Shown here: one piece after another, positions 2,633 to 30,815 of the stretch | Layout: the number at the start of each line of letters is the position of its first letter | Position numbering within the stretch: position 1 is the stretch's first letter | Origin: Treponemataceae bacterium | Lineage (GTDB): Bacteria; Spirochaetota; Spirochaetia; Treponematales; Rectinemataceae | Assembly (NCBI GenBank): GCA_963678065.2 | Contig: CAXXVZ010000003.1 | Span: 448,001 to 512,000, forward strand | Reading direction: 5' to 3' | DNA: 64,000 nucleotides | Position numbers and translations under genes: made by a program | Notes under the pieces: generated by a model | Told to the model about the DNA's origin: nothing | Database searches by the model: none | What the model saw: the letters and a program-made list of their open reading frames with translations, nothing else

Positions 2633-3847
2633 TTATGCGCCCTTCACGTGGCGGGCGAGCTCGCGTCCGCGCTCGAAAAGGACGTCGAGAGTCGTGGCGT
2701 CCGGGCTTCCTGCCCACTCGACACTCTCGAGGCTGTCCCACTTGAGGGGCGCGATCCTGGCCTCGTAATCCTTCTTGGCCCCGCCGACCCAGCCCCAGCT
2801 GCCGATGCGCAGCGCTTTCCGGTTCCAGACATGCTTGCGCTCGAACACCTCGAGGAGGTAGGCGATGGGCGGGAACATCTTGTACTCGTAGGTGGGCATC
2901 GCGACGATTATGCCTTCGCACTTGTATGCGTCGGCGAGCGCGAAGGAGACGTCCTCGTTCGGGATCCTGTGGAGGACATAGGGAACCTTCTCGTGATCGA
3001 GTCCGGCAAGAACGGCCTTCAGACCCTTCTCGGTGTTGCCGTACATGGAACCCCAGACGACGCAGACCTCTTTCTCGCGATTTTTATCCAGGTAATCCGC
3101 ATATTTCGCATAACGCCCGATGATGACCTGCGGGTCTTTGCGCCAGATTATGCCGTGGCTTGGCGCGACAACCTTGAGATCGAGGATCGAGAGTTTTTCG
3201 ATGGCTTTTTTCACGAAAAGCCCGAAGCTCGACACGATATTGGAGTAGTAGCGGAGCGACTCCTTCTCATAAAAGCTGTGTTCGGCCGTATCGAACTGGT
3301 CGTCGAAAACCCTGTCTCCGAGTGCGCCGAAGCCGCCGAAGGCGTCGCAGGTGAAGGCGATGCCGGAAACAGGCTCGTATGTCACCATTGTTTCCGGCCA
3401 GTGGACGTTCGGCGCCTCGATGAAGTGGAGCACCATGCCTTCGCCGAGATCGAGCGTGTCGCCGGTCTTTACGACAACGAGACCCTCGGTGATCTTGTAA
3501 AAGGATTTGACGAGTTCGACACCTTTGGCTGTCGCGTAGATCTTCACGTGAGGATTGAGGGCCTTGAACTCGGCGAGCCAGCCGGTGTGGTCGGGTTCGA
3601 GGTGATTCAGAATGAGGTAGTCGATGTTGGAGATGCCGGTGCCAGCCTGGGAGAGCTGATCGCCCAGAATGGCAGGAGCATTCGTCCAGTCCCGGACCAG
3701 GTCGATCAAGGCCGTTTTTTCGCCCTTCACGACATAGCTGTTGAGGGAGACGCCGTCTGGGATGGGCCAGATTCCCTCGAAGAGATCGGTGGTCCGTATG
3801 TCGACATGGAGAGCGTGTATCCTGTCGGTGATCGGGTAGGCTTTCAT
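2633..3847 (-). CDS. fprA: Flavodiiron protein FprA (class A; O2/NO reductase)
   Basis: MBL diiron ligands HLEPDH, VHWPE, CDAFG, PSHG plus flavodoxin domain (GSMYGNT, GSWGWVGG); start placed at MKAYP behind GAAGGA. Confidence 0.93.
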   Translation of the reverse strand: MKAYPITDRIHALHVDIRTTDLFEGIWPIPDGVSLNSYVVKGEKTALIDLVRDWTNAPAILGDQLSQAGTGISNIDYLILNHLEPDHTGWLAEFKALNPHVKIYATAKGVELVKSFYKITEGLVVVKTGDTLDLGEGMVLHFIEAPNVHWPETMVTYEPVSGIAFTCDAFGGFGALGDRVFDDQFDTAEHSFYEKESLRYYSNIVSSFGLFVKKAIEKLSILDLKVVAPSHGIIWRKDPQVIIGRYAKYADYLDKNREKEVCVVWGSMYGNTEKGLKAVLAGLDHEKVPYVLHRIPNEDVSFALADAYKCEGIIVAMPTYEYKMFPPIAYLLEVFERKHVWNRKALRIGSWGWVGGAKKDYEARIAPLKWDSLESVEWAGSPDATTLDVLFERGRELARHVKGA

Positions 3848-3905
3848 CAATCTTCCTTCGTCGAAATATGATGTTGCGGCAGGATTCCACTCTCCTGCCG
3901 CGTTC

Positions 3906-3934
3906 ATTATACCGCAATCACGGAACTTTCAGAA
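3906..3934 (-). promoter_or_regulatory. Putative fprA promoter
   Basis: Minus strand TTCTGA-17 nt-TATAAT. Confidence 0.5.
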
Positions 3935-5389
3935 GGCACCTGTCCCGAGCTTGGCGGAAATCCCGAGACTGACCGGATTCCCCTGGAAGAGTACACCATA
4001 CTCAGTCGCCTTTTCGCCGAAAACGAAGGTCAGGTCCGCCTGGAGGCTCATCCTGTCAAAGAGCTTCCAGGTTACCGAAGGCTTCACGAGACCCGAGAAA
4101 TCGGAGAGGTTTGCGATCGACAGGATCGAAACCGTTATGTTGTCGTCGAGAAATTCCGACTTGCTGAACGAGAACCCCGCGTAGTGCATGCCCGAATTGT
4201 AGGCCACTGCGGCGAGTGCCCCGCTGAGCGCTTTTACGGCAGAAGAGGGGAGCCCTGGGGTCTCAATGACTGCCATTCCGGTGGAGATGAGATTCTTGCG
4301 GTCGGAATCGAAATACCCCTCGCCGTTGTAAAAATACTGTGCGATGGCCACAATATTTGCTTTTGAATTATTGTACAGCAGTCCGGCCGTGCCCGAGGGG
4401 ATCCAATCTGTCTTTTTCGGCAAGGCGATGAGATACGGGTAGGAAGCGCTTATGGATGAGTAAAAAGTTTTCTCGCTCCCGTGCGCGATGCTGAACTCGC
4501 CGAACATATCGAAGTCCCCCAGAGGGCCCGCGAGTGTCAGCATACCGCGCTCAGGCCTTCCGTACTGGTAGTAGCCCCCCAGCCCCACCTCATAGTGCTT
4601 TACGAGCACTTCGGCCTTTGCCGCGAGCGCGATGTCCGAGGGATAGACAGGCAGGGGATTGGTCGGATCCTTGGGGTTCAGGATGGCGTAGGCGTAGAGA
4701 TTGTTCTGCGTTCCGAGTATGGGCATGTGTACCCGGAAATTGACCGGACCCTCCCGCTGGGCAGTCGGGTCGGTGATATCTATGGACCCGACATTGATGA
4801 CATCGGCGGGACTCCAGAAGTAGCCTGTTCCCCACTTGACCGTGGACTTCCCGAAACGGAAGAAGACGGAGTCTTTCCATGAAAAATCGGAAAAGAGCTC
4901 GAATACCGAGATGTTCGGGAGGGCAATCTGGCCTGAAGTCGTGACAAGGGAGGAGCCAGTCAAGGTCGCCGATGTCAGGAATGTGCTGGTTGCAGTGAAT
5001 GGCCAGGCGATCTTGGCAGAGCCATAAACCCGGAAGTCCTCGTCCGGCCTCGCGTCGAAGAAGACGAGGCTGGACAGCGTGGGATTGACGACGGTCGAAT
5101 CCGGTTTCAGGGGATCGAACCCGCCGGTCCATGGAGTGTTCCACTTCCAGCTCAGGCCTATATTCCCGGTGAAGCTCCCGCCGATCCTGACTTTGTCGGT
5201 CTTGAGGGCTGCGGAGACGCCATTGCCGGCATCCTTCACTGGCGTATTGTCCACGACTTCGTCGCCGAAGAGAGCATCCTCGCTCGCACTTCCGGAACCG
5301 GGGAGACTCTCTTGCGCAAAACCCGAAAACGTCGCCAAAAAACCGAGGCAGAGGAGGCTGAAGGTCCTGGTGAATGCTTTTTTAGCCAT
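3929..5389 (-). CDS. Exported protein, probable outer-membrane beta-barrel
   Basis: Signal peptide ending GFA-Q; alternating beta-strand patterns; FRFGKSTVKWGTGYFWSPAD motif; C-terminal Phe; last gene of the ABC operon. Confidence 0.7.
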   Translation of the reverse strand: MAKKAFTRTFSLLCLGFLATFSGFAQESLPGSGSASEDALFGDEVVDNTPVKDAGNGVSAALKTDKVRIGGSFTGNIGLSWKWNTPWTGGFDPLKPDSTVVNPTLSSLVFFDARPDEDFRVYGSAKIAWPFTATSTFLTSATLTGSSLVTTSGQIALPNISVFELFSDFSWKDSVFFRFGKSTVKWGTGYFWSPADVINVGSIDITDPTAQREGPVNFRVHMPILGTQNNLYAYAILNPKDPTNPLPVYPSDIALAAKAEVLVKHYEVGLGGYYQYGRPERGMLTLAGPLGDFDMFGEFSIAHGSEKTFYSSISASYPYLIALPKKTDWIPSGTAGLLYNNSKANIVAIAQYFYNGEGYFDSDRKNLISTGMAVIETPGLPSSAVKALSGALAAVAYNSGMHYAGFSFSKSEFLDDNITVSILSIANLSDFSGLVKPSVTWKLFDRMSLQADLTFVFGEKATEYGVLFQGNPVSLGISAKLGTGAF

Positions 5390-5398
5390 GACTGACTC

Positions 5399-6226
5399 CT
5401 ATTTATTCACCTGCTCGATGAAGGCCTTGGTGAAGACCTTGTCGGGCAGGGGAGCCACGGATTGCTCGGCCATGGTGATCTGGCTCTTCTCTCCCTTGTT
5501 GATCTCGTCGACGATGAGTATTTGGGAGGGCATGAGCCTTCCGTCGATCTCGGCGTACTTGGGATAGAGAGTCGTGCGCATGAGCCTGCCGGAGACCGAG
5601 AAATCTTCCTGCTTGAGCAGCATGGTCCGATCCTTGCGGACGTAGAGCTTCATGCGCTCGTAGGCGACCTCGTTGGTCTTCGCCTTCAGGTCGAGGATCC
5701 AGACCGGGAATTTGCCCACCATCCCCTCTTTCGTGGACTCGATGGTGTAGTCATCGACGAGGGAGGTCTTCGTGAAGTCGGAATTTTTGGCCTCGCTGTT
5801 CTGCAGGTTTTCCTTGATCGACGAGAACGAAAACTTGCGGCTCGTCGGATCGTAGAACCAGACGCTCTCTTCCTCGCGGAGGTAGCCCTGGCCTTTGTTG
5901 ACTTCAGGAAGCATGATGAGGAGGGCGAACTGTTTTTTGGTGTCGCGGCGGTAAAGCCTGACCTGAGTCACAGTCTGCTTTTCGCCCGGTTTCTCCGAGA
6001 CGATCGTGATGAGCGAGGAATAATCCTTGCCCGAAAAGTCTTCGAGAGTGTCGAGCGTCTGCAGGATTTTTACCGGATCGGCTGTCTGAGCGAAGAGGCC
6101 GGAAGATGGAACGAAGGTGAGGAGGAAGAGCGCGCACTGCATCAGCGCGGTTGTCCTCCCAAGCCACAAACGAGGCGAGGGCGCCCTGCGCCTGATTCCG
6201 GAATGCATCTGCGGATCGTGGTTCAT
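5399..6226 (-). CDS. LolA-like outer-membrane lipoprotein-sorting family periplasmic protein
   Basis: Signal peptide ending LFA-Q; PEVNKGQGYL, VWFYDP, C-terminal LPDKVFTKAFIE; start at AGGAG-preceded ATG 6226. Confidence 0.8.
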   Translation of the reverse strand: MNHDPQMHSGIRRRAPSPRLWLGRTTALMQCALFLLTFVPSSGLFAQTADPVKILQTLDTLEDFSGKDYSSLITIVSEKPGEKQTVTQVRLYRRDTKKQFALLIMLPEVNKGQGYLREEESVWFYDPTSRKFSFSSIKENLQNSEAKNSDFTKTSLVDDYTIESTKEGMVGKFPVWILDLKAKTNEVAYERMKLYVRKDRTMLLKQEDFSVSGRLMRTTLYPKYAEIDGRLMPSQILIVDEINKGEKSQITMAEQSVAPLPDKVFTKAFIEQVNK

Positions 6227-26287: not shown

Positions 26288-27634
26288 ATGAATTCTTACA
26301 TAAAACAAGTTCTCGATGACCTCAAAGCCAGGTACCCTTGGGAAACCGAATTTTTGCAGGCGGCCGAAGAGGTGCTCGAGTCCATTTCTCCGATAATCGA
26401 CGCGGAACCCAAATACAAAGCCCACCGCATCCTCGAGCGCATCACCGAGCCGGAACGCACGGTCATGTTCCGTGTGCCCTGGATAGACGACAAGGGCGAG
26501 TACCGGATCAATCGCGGATACCGCGTCCAGTTCAACTCTGCCATCGGGCCCTACAAGGGTGGCCTGCGCTTCCATCCCAAAGTCCAGCTCTCCACTCTCA
26601 AATTCCTCGGCTTCGAGCAGATTTTCAAGAACAGCCTCACGAGCCTTCCGATGGGCGGCGGCAAGGGCGGTTCCGATTTCGACCCGAACGGGAAAAGCGA
26701 CAATGAGATCATGCGCTTCTGCCAGAGCTTCATGACCGAGCTCTTCCGCCACATCGGCCCTGACACCGATGTTCCCGCCGGCGATATCGGCGTCGGCGGA
26801 CGCGAAGTGGGATACCTCTTCGGCCAGTACAAGCGTCTCGCGAACGAGTTCACCGGAGTTCTCACCGGCAAGGGACTCAGCTTCGGCGGTTCTCTTGTCA
26901 GGCCCGAGGCGACCGGTTTCGGCGCGACCTACTTTGCTGCGGAAATGCTCAAGCTCGGAAATGATTCTTTCGCGGGCAAGACTGTCTCCGTTTCCGGTTT
27001 CGGCAACGTGGCATGGGGCGTCTGCATCAAGGCCAGCCAGCTCGGCGCCAAGGTCGTGACCATCTCCGGCCCCGACGGTTATGTCTTCGATCCCGACGGC
27101 ATCGGCACCAAGGAGAAGTGGGATTACCTGGAAGACATGCTCGTCATCGACCGCAATAAGGTCGAGAGCTATGTCAAGAAATTCCCTGCGGCCACCTTCT
27201 ACGCCGGCCGCAAACCCTGGGAACAGAAAGTCGACATTGCGATGCCCTGCGCTATCCAGAACGAGCTCAACGGAGAAGACGCGAGGGCTCTCATAGCCAA
27301 CGGCGTCAAGATCGTCGTCGAAGTTTCCAACATGGGCTGCACTCCTGAGGCCTGGAAGCTCTTCATCGAGAAGAAGATCCCCTTCGCTCCCGGCAAGGCG
27401 GCAAACGCCGGCGGCGTCGCCACCTCCGGCCTCGAGATGTGTCAGAATTCCATGCGCCTCGCCTGGAGTGCCGAAGAAGTGGACCAGCGCCTGCATCAGA
27501 TCATGGTCAACATCCACACCGCCTGCGTCGAGACTGCCAAGAAGTACGGATTCAGCGGCAACTACGTGATCGGCGCGAACATCGCCGGCTTCAAGAAAGT
27601 CGCCGACGCGATGATCGCCCAAGGATTGGTTTGA
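26288..27634 (+). CDS. gdhA: NAD(P)-specific glutamate dehydrogenase
   Basis: GPYKGGLRFHP, PMGGGKGGSDFDP, DVPAGDIGVG, RPEATGFG, SGFGNVA, KAANAGGVATS; AAGGAGG RBS. Confidence 0.98.
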   Translation: MNSYIKQVLDDLKARYPWETEFLQAAEEVLESISPIIDAEPKYKAHRILERITEPERTVMFRVPWIDDKGEYRINRGYRVQFNSAIGPYKGGLRFHPKVQLSTLKFLGFEQIFKNSLTSLPMGGGKGGSDFDPNGKSDNEIMRFCQSFMTELFRHIGPDTDVPAGDIGVGGREVGYLFGQYKRLANEFTGVLTGKGLSFGGSLVRPEATGFGATYFAAEMLKLGNDSFAGKTVSVSGFGNVAWGVCIKASQLGAKVVTISGPDGYVFDPDGIGTKEKWDYLEDMLVIDRNKVESYVKKFPAATFYAGRKPWEQKVDIAMPCAIQNELNGEDARALIANGVKIVVEVSNMGCTPEAWKLFIEKKIPFAPGKAANAGGVATSGLEMCQNSMRLAWSAEEVDQRLHQIMVNIHTACVETAKKYGFSGNYVIGANIAGFKKVADAMIAQGLV

Positions 27635-27677
27635 TCGTCGCGTCGAGATGCGATGATCGCCTAGGGTTGGTTTGACC
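27604..27677. repeat. Direct-inverted-direct repeat of the gdhA 3' end
   Basis: gacgcgatgatcgcccaaggattggtttga (27605-27634) recurs as gatgcgatgatcgcctagggttggtttga (27647-27675); intervening gatcgtcgcgtc is an inverted copy of the first 12 nt. Confidence 0.85.
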
Positions 27678-27735
27678 ACCAGGTAATAAGGGCTCTCGCC
27701 TGGCAGAATGCTGGCGGGTCCTGAAGCGAAAAGAG

Positions 27736-27770
27736 GAGGGACGGTCCATGTGGGGCCGTCCCTCTTTTGT
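27736..27770 (+). terminator. Intrinsic terminator after gdhA
   Basis: 12-bp stem GAGGGACGGTCC/GGGCCGTCCCTC followed by TTTTGT. Confidence 0.75.
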
Positions 27771-27827
27771 ACCTTGCGTTCGAGGGTGCGCTTGTATATC
27801 GTGACGCCAGTCGCAGGGGGGAAGGCC

Positions 27828-30815
27828 ATGTATTTCAACGAATTGGTCGCCGCGTACGACCAGCAGCGCCGCGAACGGAACATCTACCACGATCTCATGC
27901 GGTTCCGCATCAGGGAAGTCCTCCTCGTCGGCAGCCTCTACGATTCCTTCGTCGTCGAATCCGATGGTGTGCTCACCGAGCAGATATACGGGGAGTACTT
28001 CAAGCTCAACCTTAACACTGTGCCCCGCGTTCAATGCGCCTACACAGCCGAGACTGCCCTCGATTTGTTCACCGATGGTCGCTATGACCTCGTCATTCTC
28101 ATGGCGGGACTCGATTTCACCCAGCCTCTGGAAATTGCCGCCGCGATGAAACGCCTGTGGCCCGACACACCTATACTCCTCATGGTCACCAACAACACGA
28201 GCCTCGCGAGCCTGGACATGCAGAACCCGAGACTCGCCCACATAGACCGGGTCTTTGTATGGAACGGCTACTCGAAGCTCTTTGTCGGAATGATCAAATA
28301 CGTGGAGGACCTGCGCAATGTCGACGCAGACACGAGAACGGGCCAGGTCAGGGTCATCCTCCTCATCGAGGATTCCGTGCGGTACTACTCGCGCTACCTG
28401 CCTGTTCTCTACAAAGTCGTGTTGCGCCAGACCCAGGCTCTCATCGAAGAGGAAAAGGCCGGAGAGACATTCAAGCTCCTCAGCATGAGGGCGCGACCCA
28501 AGATACTCCTCGCCTCGAGCTACGAGGAGGCCGTGACCATATTTGAGAAGTATGAGCCCTACATCCTCACCGTCATAACCGACCTCCGTTTCCCCCACAA
28601 GGGAATCTGCGACGAAAATTCCGGATTCGAATTTCTCGAAATGGCGAAGAGCCGCATCCGGGATCTTCCCGTCCTCGTCCAGTCGAGCGAAAAGTCAGTC
28701 CGCGAACATGCCTACGTCCTCGGAGCATCTTTTGCGGACAAGAATTCCGAGTCGCTCGAGCATGAACTCGCCACCTACCTTCAGGAAAACCTTGGATTCG
28801 GTCCATTCCGCTTCCGTGATCCGAGCGGCAACGTGATTTCGACAGCCCGCAACATGGAAGAGTTCATGTTCCAGCTGAACGAACTCCCCGCCGAGAGCAT
28901 CATCCACCACGCCCGCCGCAACCACTTCTCGGCCTGGCTCATGGCGCGCGGCGAGATACAGTTCGCGAAACTTCTCAAGAACTACAAAGTCGACGATTTC
29001 GATTCCGCCCAGGATGTCCGCGATTTCATCATGCGCATCGTCAACAACGCGAGGCGCGACAAGTCGCGGGGCGTCGTCCCCGCCTTCGACGAGGCTTTCT
29101 GCCGCGACGAGAACTGTATCTCCCGGCTCGGGGACGGCTCGGTCGGAGGGAAGGGCAGGGGACTCATTTTTCTCCGGAGCCTCCTCGAAAACCTCGATTT
29201 CACGCAGTACCTGAAAGGCATCGAAGTGAAGATCCCCCGCACGGCCTTCATAGGGATCGACGAATTCGAGCGCTTCCTCGAGTCGAACGGACTCTGGTCC
29301 TTCGCCTATTACGAGGCGGCTCACCAGGAAATCCGCACCCGTTTCCTGGCTTCTCCGCTCTCTTCCCAGCTGGTCGGCAGGCTCAGGCGCTTTGCCTCGG
29401 CGACGACCCAGCCCCTCGCCATCCGTTCCTCGGGTCTCTTCGAGGACATGCTCATGGTCCCCTTCTCCGGAATCTACGACACCTACATCATCCCCAATTC
29501 ACACCCTGACTTGGAAGTTCGGGTCAGACAGATGTGCGATGCGATCAGACTGATCTACGCCAGCCTTTTTTCGAAGGCAGCCTGCGACTATTTCGAGACT
29601 GCGGGATACAATCTCGAAGAGGAGCGGATGGCGATCGTCATCCAGGAAGTCGTCGGCAGACAGCGGGGTCGATATTTTTACCCGCATCTCTCCGGCACTG
29701 CCCAGTCATACAATTACTACCCGGTTTCCTACATCAAGCCCGAAGATGGCCTGTGCATTTCCGCCCTCGGGCTCGGATGTTATGTAGTGGAAGGCGGAGT
29801 CTCTCATCAGTTCAGCCCCCGCTATCCCAGAATCGACGTCGTGTCGCCCGAGCACCTGATCGAAAATTCACAGAGGGTATTCCGGGCGCTCGACATGGAT
29901 CTGGCAGAACCCGACCTTTCTGTCGGCGAGGACGCAGCTCTCGTCGAGTTGCCCATCTCTGAAGCCGAAGCGGATCCGATGTTCAATCTCCTCGCCTCGA
30001 CCTGGGATATCGCCGACCGCTGTCTCGTCCCCGGGACCGGGGCGAGAGGGCCCAAGTTCATCAATCTCGCCAATATCCTGAAATACGATGCCTTCCCCTT
30101 CGCCCAGGCCATCGAGATGATTCTCCAGATCGGATCGCGCTCCATGGGCGCTCCGGTGGAAATCGAGTATGCGCTCAATATCGACGAACCGGACGGGATA
30201 CCGGCTCTCTATCTCCTCCAGCTGAAACCGCTCATGCACAAGGAAGACAAGATCGAGATCGATTTCTCCGGAATTGATCCTGCGGATTGTGTCATCGTTT
30301 CGGGAAGAAGCATGGGCAACGGACGGGACAACTCGATCACTGACATCGTCTGGGTGGACCCGGAGCGCTTCAACCGTTCCCGAACGGTGGATATAGCGAC
30401 TGAAATCGAGGAAATAGACATGACTTTCCGGAGGGAAGGTCGTCGCTACCTTCTCATCGGTCCCGGGCGGTGGGGCACCAGAGACAGATGGCTGGGTGTG
30501 CCGGTCACCTACCCGCAGATTTCTCGCGCAAGAGTCATCGTGGAGGCTGACCTGCCCGGCTTTCACGTCGAATCATCCCTCGGCTCGCACTTTTTCCACA
30601 ACGTCACGAGCATGAACATCGGATACCTGACAGTGCCTTCCAACGAGCCCGGCGTCTTCGTCGATTGGGACTGGCTCGCCGCCCTGCCGCGCTGTCGACA
30701 GACCGTTCACTGCAACTGGGCCCGCCTGGAAAGCCCGCTCGATGTGCTCATGGATGGGCGAAACGGCCGCTCCCTCGTCATGAAGCCCGGTCCCCGAAAA
30801 CAGGAAGCCTCCTGA
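27828..30815 (+). CDS. Receiver-domain/PPDK-type ATP-grasp fusion protein (often labelled PEP/pyruvate-binding domain protein), 995 aa
   Basis: Two receiver-like folds (second: ILLIEDS...VITDLRFP...QSS...ADK); helical RNHFSAWL domain; ATP-grasp VGGKGRGL, LAIRSSGLFED, MAIVIQEVVG, EIEYA...LLQLKP; C-terminal GPGRWG...SSLGSHFF domain. Confidence 0.85.
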   Translation: MYFNELVAAYDQQRRERNIYHDLMRFRIREVLLVGSLYDSFVVESDGVLTEQIYGEYFKLNLNTVPRVQCAYTAETALDLFTDGRYDLVILMAGLDFTQPLEIAAAMKRLWPDTPILLMVTNNTSLASLDMQNPRLAHIDRVFVWNGYSKLFVGMIKYVEDLRNVDADTRTGQVRVILLIEDSVRYYSRYLPVLYKVVLRQTQALIEEEKAGETFKLLSMRARPKILLASSYEEAVTIFEKYEPYILTVITDLRFPHKGICDENSGFEFLEMAKSRIRDLPVLVQSSEKSVREHAYVLGASFADKNSESLEHELATYLQENLGFGPFRFRDPSGNVISTARNMEEFMFQLNELPAESIIHHARRNHFSAWLMARGEIQFAKLLKNYKVDDFDSAQDVRDFIMRIVNNARRDKSRGVVPAFDEAFCRDENCISRLGDGSVGGKGRGLIFLRSLLENLDFTQYLKGIEVKIPRTAFIGIDEFERFLESNGLWSFAYYEAAHQEIRTRFLASPLSSQLVGRLRRFASATTQPLAIRSSGLFEDMLMVPFSGIYDTYIIPNSHPDLEVRVRQMCDAIRLIYASLFSKAACDYFETAGYNLEEERMAIVIQEVVGRQRGRYFYPHLSGTAQSYNYYPVSYIKPEDGLCISALGLGCYVVEGGVSHQFSPRYPRIDVVSPEHLIENSQRVFRALDMDLAEPDLSVGEDAALVELPISEAEADPMFNLLASTWDIADRCLVPGTGARGPKFINLANILKYDAFPFAQAIEMILQIGSRSMGAPVEIEYALNIDEPDGIPALYLLQLKPLMHKEDKIEIDFSGIDPADCVIVSGRSMGNGRDNSITDIVWVDPERFNRSRTVDIATEIEEIDMTFRREGRRYLLIGPGRWGTRDRWLGVPVTYPQISRARVIVEADLPGFHVESSLGSHFFHNVTSMNIGYLTVPSNEPGVFVDWDWLAALPRCRQTVHCNWARLESPLDVLMDGRNGRSLVMKPGPRKQEAS

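Follow-up and report, generated by a model that had tools for sequence, protein, structure and literature searches.

The window analyzed here is a 64,000-nucleotide (nt) stretch of contig CAXXVZ010000003.1 (positions 448,001 to 512,000) from a Treponemataceae bacterium of the lineage Rectinemataceae. It harbors gdhA, which encodes a hexameric-type glutamate dehydrogenase (GDH), and 193 nt downstream, on the same strand, a gene for a 995-residue protein that joins two receiver domains to the ATP-grasp of a dikinase and a C-terminal swivel-like domain. The original prediction, made from the letters of the sequence, described a dikinase-like protein without pyruvate domain that passes phosphate from a His either to its own receiver Asp or to a protein such as GdhA. 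The gene pair and the parts of the protein are as follows.

26288–27634, plus strand: gdhA, 448-residue hexameric-type GDH (747.6 bits to NCBIfam PRK14030; cut-off 743)
27828–30815, plus strand: the 995-residue protein (P0001), single copy in the genome
27909–28319, plus strand: pseudo-receiver, residues 28–164, assigned by fold (Z about 14 to receivers) and conservation
28344–28805, plus strand: intact receiver, residues 173–326, with E181, D182, D252 (28581–28583), S286 and K305
28842–29066, plus strand: small helical domain, residues 339–413, helices in the model and a weak DUF5752 match (Pfam E 0.00026, below cut-off)
29115–30242, plus strand: ATP-grasp of the phosphoenolpyruvate (PEP) synthase/rifampin phosphotransferase (Rph) type, residues 430–805, with K442, R533, E539, D540, T552, E780 and Q798
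30261–30791, plus strand: enlarged swivel-fold domain, residues 812–988, with the GxGRWG loop (30459–30476), E906 and H921 (30588–30590); predicted phospho-His carrier

The frame is free of internal stops. A longer alternative starts at nt 27708; because close relatives align from the Met at nt 27828, the latter, which was also the start originally assigned, is the likely one. The closest named homologues of the protein are from Rectinemataceae and other spirochaetes. The gdhA gene is the only GDH match in the source genome (G000).

An AlphaFold model of the full protein, built with 136 sequences (pLDDT 92.3), resolves the five parts. Both N-terminal regions align to solved receivers with Z scores of 13–14, while scoring under the Pfam cut-off. 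The first lacks the acidic pair and the Lys, and Met92 (DLVILMAG, residues 87–94) takes the place of the Asp; in the model M92 ends the same strand that holds D252 in the second receiver. The pseudo-receiver keeps residues of its own, namely Y38, D39, W145, G147, E160 and D161. Only the second receiver has the full residue set. Conservation was followed in 110 full-length representatives of 940–1060 residues (50% clusters, from 151 proteins): E181 is kept in 106, D252 in 99, S286 in 103 and K305 in 106, the range for the full set including D182 being 96–106. Among receiver-type proteins of the fetched loci, D252 is present in 115 of 117. The predicted order of a degenerate receiver followed by an intact one thus holds, and each motif position given at the outset (Met for Asp, the acidic pair, the codons of D252 and H921, the Ser and the Lys) was found where it had been placed.

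The closest fold match of the tandem receivers is PleD. Like PleD and the hybrid histidine kinases, the protein has a pseudo-receiver and an intact receiver ahead of an enzyme domain; unlike them, its output is a dikinase core rather than GGDEF, and Pfam, the model and the fold alignment reveal no HisKA or GHKL ATPase domain in the 995 residues.

The dikinase core and its C-terminal domain

The ATP-grasp is recognized by Pfam as PPDK_N (residues 438–808, E 2.4e-32). Its modeled fold matches Rph and PEP synthase with Z scores of 24–27, the best being Rph (26.9), and pyruvate phosphate dikinase (PPDK) with 17–19. K442, R533 and Q798 are kept in 110 of the 110 representatives, and H921 in 108. 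Across 143 typed proteins of the fetched loci (117 receiver-type, 20 KaiC-like-type and 6 nucleotidyltransferase-type, see below), K442, R533, E539, E780, Q798, the GxGRWG loop, E906 and H921 are invariant. By motif, K442 and R533 appear to match Lys22 and Arg117 of Rph, which are described as required for its activity (PMC4844700).

The C-terminal domain spans 177 residues, compared with 110–130 in its solved matches, and has no Pfam family assigned to residues 812–988. H921 lies within SSLGSHFFHN (residues 916–925) and in the model opens a helix between two strands. This sequence of strand, loop, His at the helix start and strand is compatible with a phospho-His, which in PPDK stands at a helix start between two strands. 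Folded alone, the domain reached a pLDDT of 96.1, and it was aligned to 48,161 chains. The four best-matching chains were swivel domains, namely the His domain of Rph (Z 6.9, rmsd 3.3, 112 residues), the phosphoryl carrier of PPDK (6.6, twice) and the C-terminal domain of a pyruvate kinase (6.5), followed by the DRTGG domain (6.4) and enzyme I (5.9). The whole core behaves as one unit as well: residues 430–988 superpose in a single alignment on PEP synthase 2ols 9–467 (Z 26.6, rmsd 4.3, 363 residues), on Rph 5hv3 8–866 (Z 26.2, rmsd 5.6, 385 residues) and on PPDK 1kbl 7–510 (Z 17.8).

Several results speak against a phospho-His swivel. Z scores under 8 are modest and can reflect a common arrangement, and swivel folds that lack the His reach similar values (DRTGG, Z 6.4; aconitase X, Z 5.6). 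Foldseek gives no match for the domain at E 0.001 or better, and hhalign against 26 swivel segments gives 0.2%. A profile search of the PDB with the domain returned only spurious VAMP7-type matches, and the ESM Atlas only unnamed clusters. The phospho-His motif described as canonical, T/SxxGGxxxH (PMC12167813), is absent; the protein has FHVESSLGSH921FF, and the family pattern is SxG[ST]HFF. On the other side stand the fold search, whose best matches are phospho-His swivel domains, the superposition of the whole core, and the invariance of the His. On these three grounds the His of GSHFF very probably belongs to a divergent swivel, as originally proposed, and H921 would be the phosphorylated residue.

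The anatomy of the protein is well supported. Compared with PEP synthase (PpsA) and PPDK, it shares the ATP-grasp followed directly by a swivel, but differs in having SxG[ST]HFF in place of GGxTSHAA, two receivers in front, and no PEP/pyruvate barrel. The claim that the barrel is missing is borne out by Pfam, which detects no barrel family, and by the chain itself, which ends about 7 residues past the last domain. With Rph, HpeHI, CreHI and phenylphosphate synthase the likeness lies in the best fold matches for both parts and in the C-terminal His domain, as in Rph. Those enzymes have a large substrate-binding domain; here the ATP-grasp ends near residue 805 and the swivel starts near 812, leaving no substrate domain between, and members consisting of the core only exist.

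Distribution, architectures and linkage to gdh

The family is large, with 1052 representatives at 50% identity (E 1e-30 or better), a set that may include other PPDK_N proteins. Matches were found in 36 of 201 genomes from the window's phylum and in 18 of 18 from its own family. Within Bacteroidales, the order of G201, 178 of 201 genomes have a member; so do 111 of 121 in the family of G318 and 61 of 121 in an Acidobacteriota sample (the phylum of G204). Databases name its members PEP synthase, PEP/pyruvate-binding domain protein or hypothetical protein. A literature search, with subscription journals largely outside its coverage, found no description of the family.

Several architectures share the ATP-grasp and His core. 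Beside the receiver type, some long forms of which carry one to three or more sensor repeats ahead of the receivers, there is a KaiC-like type of about 870 residues (20 cases) without receiver, whose N-terminal pattern lacks a Walker A motif; the label KaiC-like is a lead, given by ESM Atlas scores of 0.81–0.83 and the visible pattern, and was not called by Pfam. The nucleotidyltransferase (NTase) type of about 1070 residues has a sensor domain in front, a C-terminal Pol-beta nucleotidyltransferase with a GSTxN...SDID pattern, and no receiver. A fourth type of about 780 residues has an unassigned N-terminus. The fifth is the core by itself: in 12 of 12 core-only frames of 584–636 residues, K442, R533, E539, D540, T552, E780, Q798, GxGRWG, E906 and H921 are all present, and at locus L156 such a gene, at 2681-4456, starts 120 nt behind a gdh at 4576-5859, too close for any N-terminal domain to fit. 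Comparison by hhalign (probability under 4%) shows no relation among the N-terminal parts of the three main long types, and in a FastTree phylogeny the KaiC-like and NTase types are each monophyletic.

The sensor domain seen in the receiver-type and NTase-type members is unnamed. It measures about 120–150 residues (ERxKELxCIN/LY ... DEGPFLxEER), is single or repeated, has no Pfam match, and was noted at the N-termini of L025, L028, L033, L042 and L067, and also in L013, L015 and L019. Two proteins, P0256 (1639 residues) and P0257 (1523 residues), have two PPDK_N domains and appear to be fusions of two cores, resembling an adjacent pair of a core-only and an NTase-type gene. Tandem receiver-type paralogues occur at L029, L031, L043, L046, L048, L052, L053, L058 and L244, mostly with differing His motifs (DASxGSHFFH and DPSQGTHFFQ); they might have opposing kinase and phosphatase activities or form a heterodimer. 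Near a core-only member, a 588-residue frame (L199:6694-8457) has weak core-profile matches and two GSHFL-like motifs, no Pfam match, and no gdh in the fetched stretch. Family genes lie in two or three pieces, by frameshift or split, at L051, L073/L151 and L155, where a sequencing error is possible.

The neighborhood of gdh is a recurrent feature of the family. Of 39 family matches in the window's phylum, 25 share a contig with a GDH match no more than 5 kb away (4 of the 8 full-length matches and 21 of the 31 restricted to the core); simple arithmetic puts the chance of such proximity below 1% per locus. In that phylum, 35 of the 36 family-positive genomes have a GDH, versus 109 of 201 overall. 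Farther afield, GDH was found in 30 of 77 loci, the titles of which name Spirochaetota, Bacteroidota, Ignavibacteria, Acidobacteriota, Desulfobacterota and others, and it stands upstream, downstream, divergent or convergent to the family gene. Over 98 loci GDH is the most frequent real neighbor (43). It is also present in 18 of 20 loci chosen for multiple or short copies and in 12 of 20 loci from the family of G318. No partner gene besides gdh was seen to recur, nor does a barrel gene recur among the neighbors. Thus the linkage to gdh, for which a neighborhood survey had been proposed, is conserved in many phyla and is well supported.

The architecture of the family protein goes with the kind of GDH beside it. 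Sixteen of 20 KaiC-like-type genes adjoin a GDH more than 45% identical to that of the window, and none adjoins the distant clade. For the NTase type, 13 of 15 rows lie beside the distant GDH clade; of the others, one is the same gene in a shortened locus and one is at a contig end. Core-only genes adjoin the distant clade in 8 of 12 cases and the near clade in 1, with no GDH in range in 3, and the 125 receiver-type proteins have a near-clade GDH in 49 cases, a distant one in 6 and none in 70. Duplicated gdh-partner-gdh-partner cassettes exist at L073 and L093 and, in the window's own family, at L234 and L240. A Mantel correlation (r 0.35 over 65 pairs) was set aside as evidence, co-inheritance alone being able to explain it.

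Other genes were observed at these loci. A GTP-dependent PEP carboxykinase gene follows gdh in several KaiC-like-type loci (L159, L167 and L168; Pfam-checked for L159). Directly upstream of the family gene, L159:9451-10719 and L168:9154-10473 encode an N-terminal part similar to that of the KaiC-like type, joined to a helix-turn-helix (and, in L159, a cupin as well), possibly a transcription factor with the same sensor as the KaiC-like type. Genes for calcineurin-like metallophosphoesterases recur beside the family (L118:2027-8224, L158:9928-10785 and L021:5863-6567), and their product is a candidate eraser. At L118, where two family genes and gdh occur together, genes for a stand-alone sensor-nucleotidyltransferase and for a sensor-cNMP-CRP protein lie among them.

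Proposed function and alternatives

The reading we prefer, to which we give about an even chance, is that the 995-residue protein autophosphorylates a His and regulates GDH in trans, the receiver serving as its input. By analogy to the chemistry of PPDK and Rph, H921 would receive the beta-phosphate of ATP from the ATP-grasp, with release of AMP and Pi, a reaction described for Rph (PMC4844700). The phosphorylated protein would then switch the neighboring GDH on or off, either by phosphorylating GdhA or by binding it. D252 would act as the input switch, and it could be set by a small phosphodonor, by a kinase whose gene is unlinked, or by the His of the same protein. The pseudo-receiver may be a ligand or dimer site. 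An acceptor on another molecule is suggested because core-only members have no acceptor in cis, and GDH is suggested as the target because every architecture retains it as a partner, with one family gene for each GDH paralogue. The same one-to-one pairing argues for a protein target over a diffusible product. Since the receiver-less forms keep the core and the His and adjoin gdh, the receiver is more likely a lineage-specific input. Gene context makes direct phosphotransfer to GdhA a tentative proposal; phospho-state-dependent binding of GdhA, as proposed for VadK, is somewhat less probable.

VadK (Rv1127c) is the nearest functional precedent for such a protein. It is described as a PPDK remnant of about 50 kDa without pyruvate domain that autophosphorylates His422; its gene is near methylcitrate-cycle genes, and VadK pulls down their enzymes (PMC13400623). 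The available sections of that paper report no phosphotransfer to targets. As compared by their descriptions, both proteins have an ATP-grasp and a His domain without barrel, a gene near the enzymes thought to be controlled, and a proposed post-translational control of a central pathway. VadK stems from PPDK, lacks receivers and sensors, and is linked to the methylcitrate cycle, whereas the 995-residue protein is closer to the PEP synthase/Rph fold and has an enlarged swivel and GDH as partner. It would thus work like VadK without being a VadK member, its origin probably being separate. A dikinase remnant serving as a regulatory His kinase is a known kind of protein, and by this analogy the present family is likely a very large, unstudied instance of it.

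GlnE and GlnD are covalent regulators of nitrogen assimilation that act on glutamine synthetase (GS) or PII. The likeness lies in covalent control of a nitrogen-assimilation protein, and the NTase subtype even has a Pol-beta nucleotidyltransferase. The 995-residue protein differs in having no nucleotidyltransferase, in its predicted phospho-His chemistry, and in its presumed target, GDH rather than GS or PII.

The Bacteroides literature may bear on the proposal. According to the title of their 1996 paper, Baggio and Morrison are said to have found that GdhA activity in B. thetaiotaomicron depends on one or more trans-acting genes downstream of gdhA (title as cited in PMC4539542). A 3-kb segment was reportedly involved in that case, and the gdhA in question we take to be BT_1970. 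The GDH of B. fragilis undergoes reversible inactivation. In the gene cluster, the candidate family member BT_1972 stands between a catalase gene (BT_1971) and a second gdh (BT_1973). The gdh-catalase-partner-gdh order of BT_1970 to BT_1973 appears in no fetched locus; L100, L209, L210 and L213 have gdh, variable genes, the partner and gdh. In 12 samples, read counts of BT_1972 are 19–56 times below those of BT_1973 and above those of the other gdh, BT_1970 (supplement of PMC4595636). The main text of PMC5552732, as far as available, contains neither the word dikinase nor phosphoenolpyruvate. A farther-reaching reading, rather less likely than not, is a broad family of dikinase-derived protein kinases that covalently switch GDH, using the beta-phosphate of ATP and a phospho-His swivel, gated by receivers, KaiC-like domains or sensors, one per GDH paralogue and near-universal in Bacteroidales, which would be the trans-acting factor reported downstream of Bacteroides gdhA.

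A number of observations weigh against GDH as the target. The evidence that points to GdhA comes entirely from gene context, and the linkage counts include kin and so are not independent. GDH was found in 7 of 20 other Bacteroidales loci (partly short contigs) and, among regions taken from close relatives, in 7 of 20, with many of these regions on short contigs, and the 70 receiver-type proteins counted above as having none were followed over 6.5 kb of fetched DNA. In the phylum, 74 of 109 GDH-positive genomes have no family match, and a profile re-check found 0 of 5; therefore GDH does not need the family. No GDH residue separates linked enzymes (64, types A–C) from unlinked ones (19), though an active-site target would not show in such a comparison. 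Genes other than gdh also recur, namely korAB-type 2-oxoacid:ferredoxin oxidoreductase in 10 of 98 loci, GltD/SudA-like genes in 9 and GltB in 4. In Bacteroides, the catalase gene BT_1971 is an alternative candidate for the trans-acting gene, and family membership of BT_1972 is taken from its annotation and position. A complex prediction of the receiver region (16–415) and the swivel with GdhA (24–448), leaving out the ATP-grasp, scored 0.00 twice with unfolded controls and counts neither way.

A small-molecule dikinase is an alternative of low but appreciable probability. Here phospho-His921 would pass its phosphate to a metabolite from the 2-oxoglutarate/glutamate/ammonia node, held either by the enlarged swivel with its GxGRWG loop or by a partner subunit, and the product would serve or signal to GDH. 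The characterized dikinases Rph, HpeHI, CreHI and PpsAB do use small molecules, and several of them consist of separate subunits (PMC12167813). The size of the swivel and its invariant Arg loop are in keeping with a binding site, and several enzymes of that node recur as neighbors. However, the known enzymes have the separate substrate domain that is absent here, and only gdh recurs as partner. The pairing of type to GDH clade and the one partner per GDH paralogue are unexpected for a diffusible product, and the low BT_1972 counts relative to BT_1973 also argue against it, yet these are above those of BT_1970.

Our preferred regulator of GDH differs from the relay of the original prediction, in which phospho-His921 passes its phosphate to D252 of the same protein, no GHKL kinase takes part, and the output is the phosphorylated receiver, which would bind GDH or some other target. 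The wide conservation of D252 and its companion residues agrees with such a relay. So do the sensor repeats ahead of the receivers, as in hybrid kinases, and the surroundings of the gene, where no histidine kinase gene was seen between 20 and 38 kb of the window; a kinase-regulator pair does adjoin the family gene in L065/L152. As the core function the relay fails, however, for the same core and His exist without receiver in the KaiC-like (20), NTase-fused and core-only (12) forms beside gdh. Because these forms keep the His and adjoin gdh, the relay cannot be the ancestral output. In addition, 11 of the 110 representatives have no D252, and receivers ahead of an enzyme domain are usually inputs. 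We regard the relay as doubtful; a secondary intramolecular transfer from His to D252 may still take place in the receiver subtype. Of the two acceptors first suggested, a protein such as GdhA is the more probable.

It is also conceivable, at a low probability, that the His-autophosphorylating regulator serves the same metabolic node through another protein, such as 2-oxoacid:ferredoxin oxidoreductase, glutamate synthase, GS or a neighboring response regulator, and that gdh is merely co-regulated. The recurring korAB-type and glutamate-synthase genes, a type III GS gene in L017 and LuxR-type regulators in L033, L065 and L069 would suit this, but GDH is a far more frequent neighbor than any of them and is kept across unrelated architectures and orientations, and none of those other genes is near the gene in the window.

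An ordinary PEP synthase or PPDK with its barrel supplied elsewhere, as automatic database names and the matching ATP-grasp and swivel folds might suggest, is highly improbable, and the earlier rejection of this identity stands: the protein has no barrel and no barrel gene recurs nearby, it scores 35–51 bits against NCBIfam PEP synthase cut-offs of 598–883, and the genome encodes its own PPDK in another long frame, which carries the canonical GGKTSHAA swivel, besides an enzyme I-like frame.

GDH joins carbon and nitrogen metabolism in anaerobes. If the family does switch GDH, an overlooked layer of nitrogen control would exist in dominant gut, rumen and sediment bacteria, a GDH counterpart to the control of GS by GlnE and GlnD, and the old observation on Bacteroides GdhA would become directly testable. 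The idea raised by VadK, of a metabolic dikinase turned regulatory kinase, would then extend to a second, signal-gated and much larger family.

The intergenic region and flanking genes

Three further features lie at the end of gdhA and in the gap behind it.

27604–27645, plus strand: hairpin across the gdhA stop, 13 bp, arms 27604–27616 and 27633–27645, from the RNA/repeat analysis
27605–27631 and 27647–27673, plus strand: imperfect direct repeat (78%) of the last 27 nt of gdhA, the second copy 42 nt downstream
27730–27770, plus strand: GC-rich hairpin with a short U run at its end, in the gap separating gdhA from the gene of the 995-residue protein, arms 27736–27747 and 27753–27764

The repeat and the hairpin at the gdhA end may be what is left of a small duplication, or may have a role in RNA stability. 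The region 27600–27830 has an RNA fold z of -4.5. The hairpin at 27730–27770 is terminator-like and would lower read-through from gdhA into the downstream gene; the terminator scan, which needs 5 T, did not list it and gave another stem, 27768–27790. Such a terminator-like hairpin, together with the low BT_1972 counts, fits a catalytic regulator. In the RNA data (4 runs of one study, as contigs only) both genes are covered over short stretches, a coverage that cannot show transcription, level or co-transcription. The pair is flanked by housekeeping genes, with phoH, a 7TM-HD gene, ybeY and corC before it and pheS and pheT after it.

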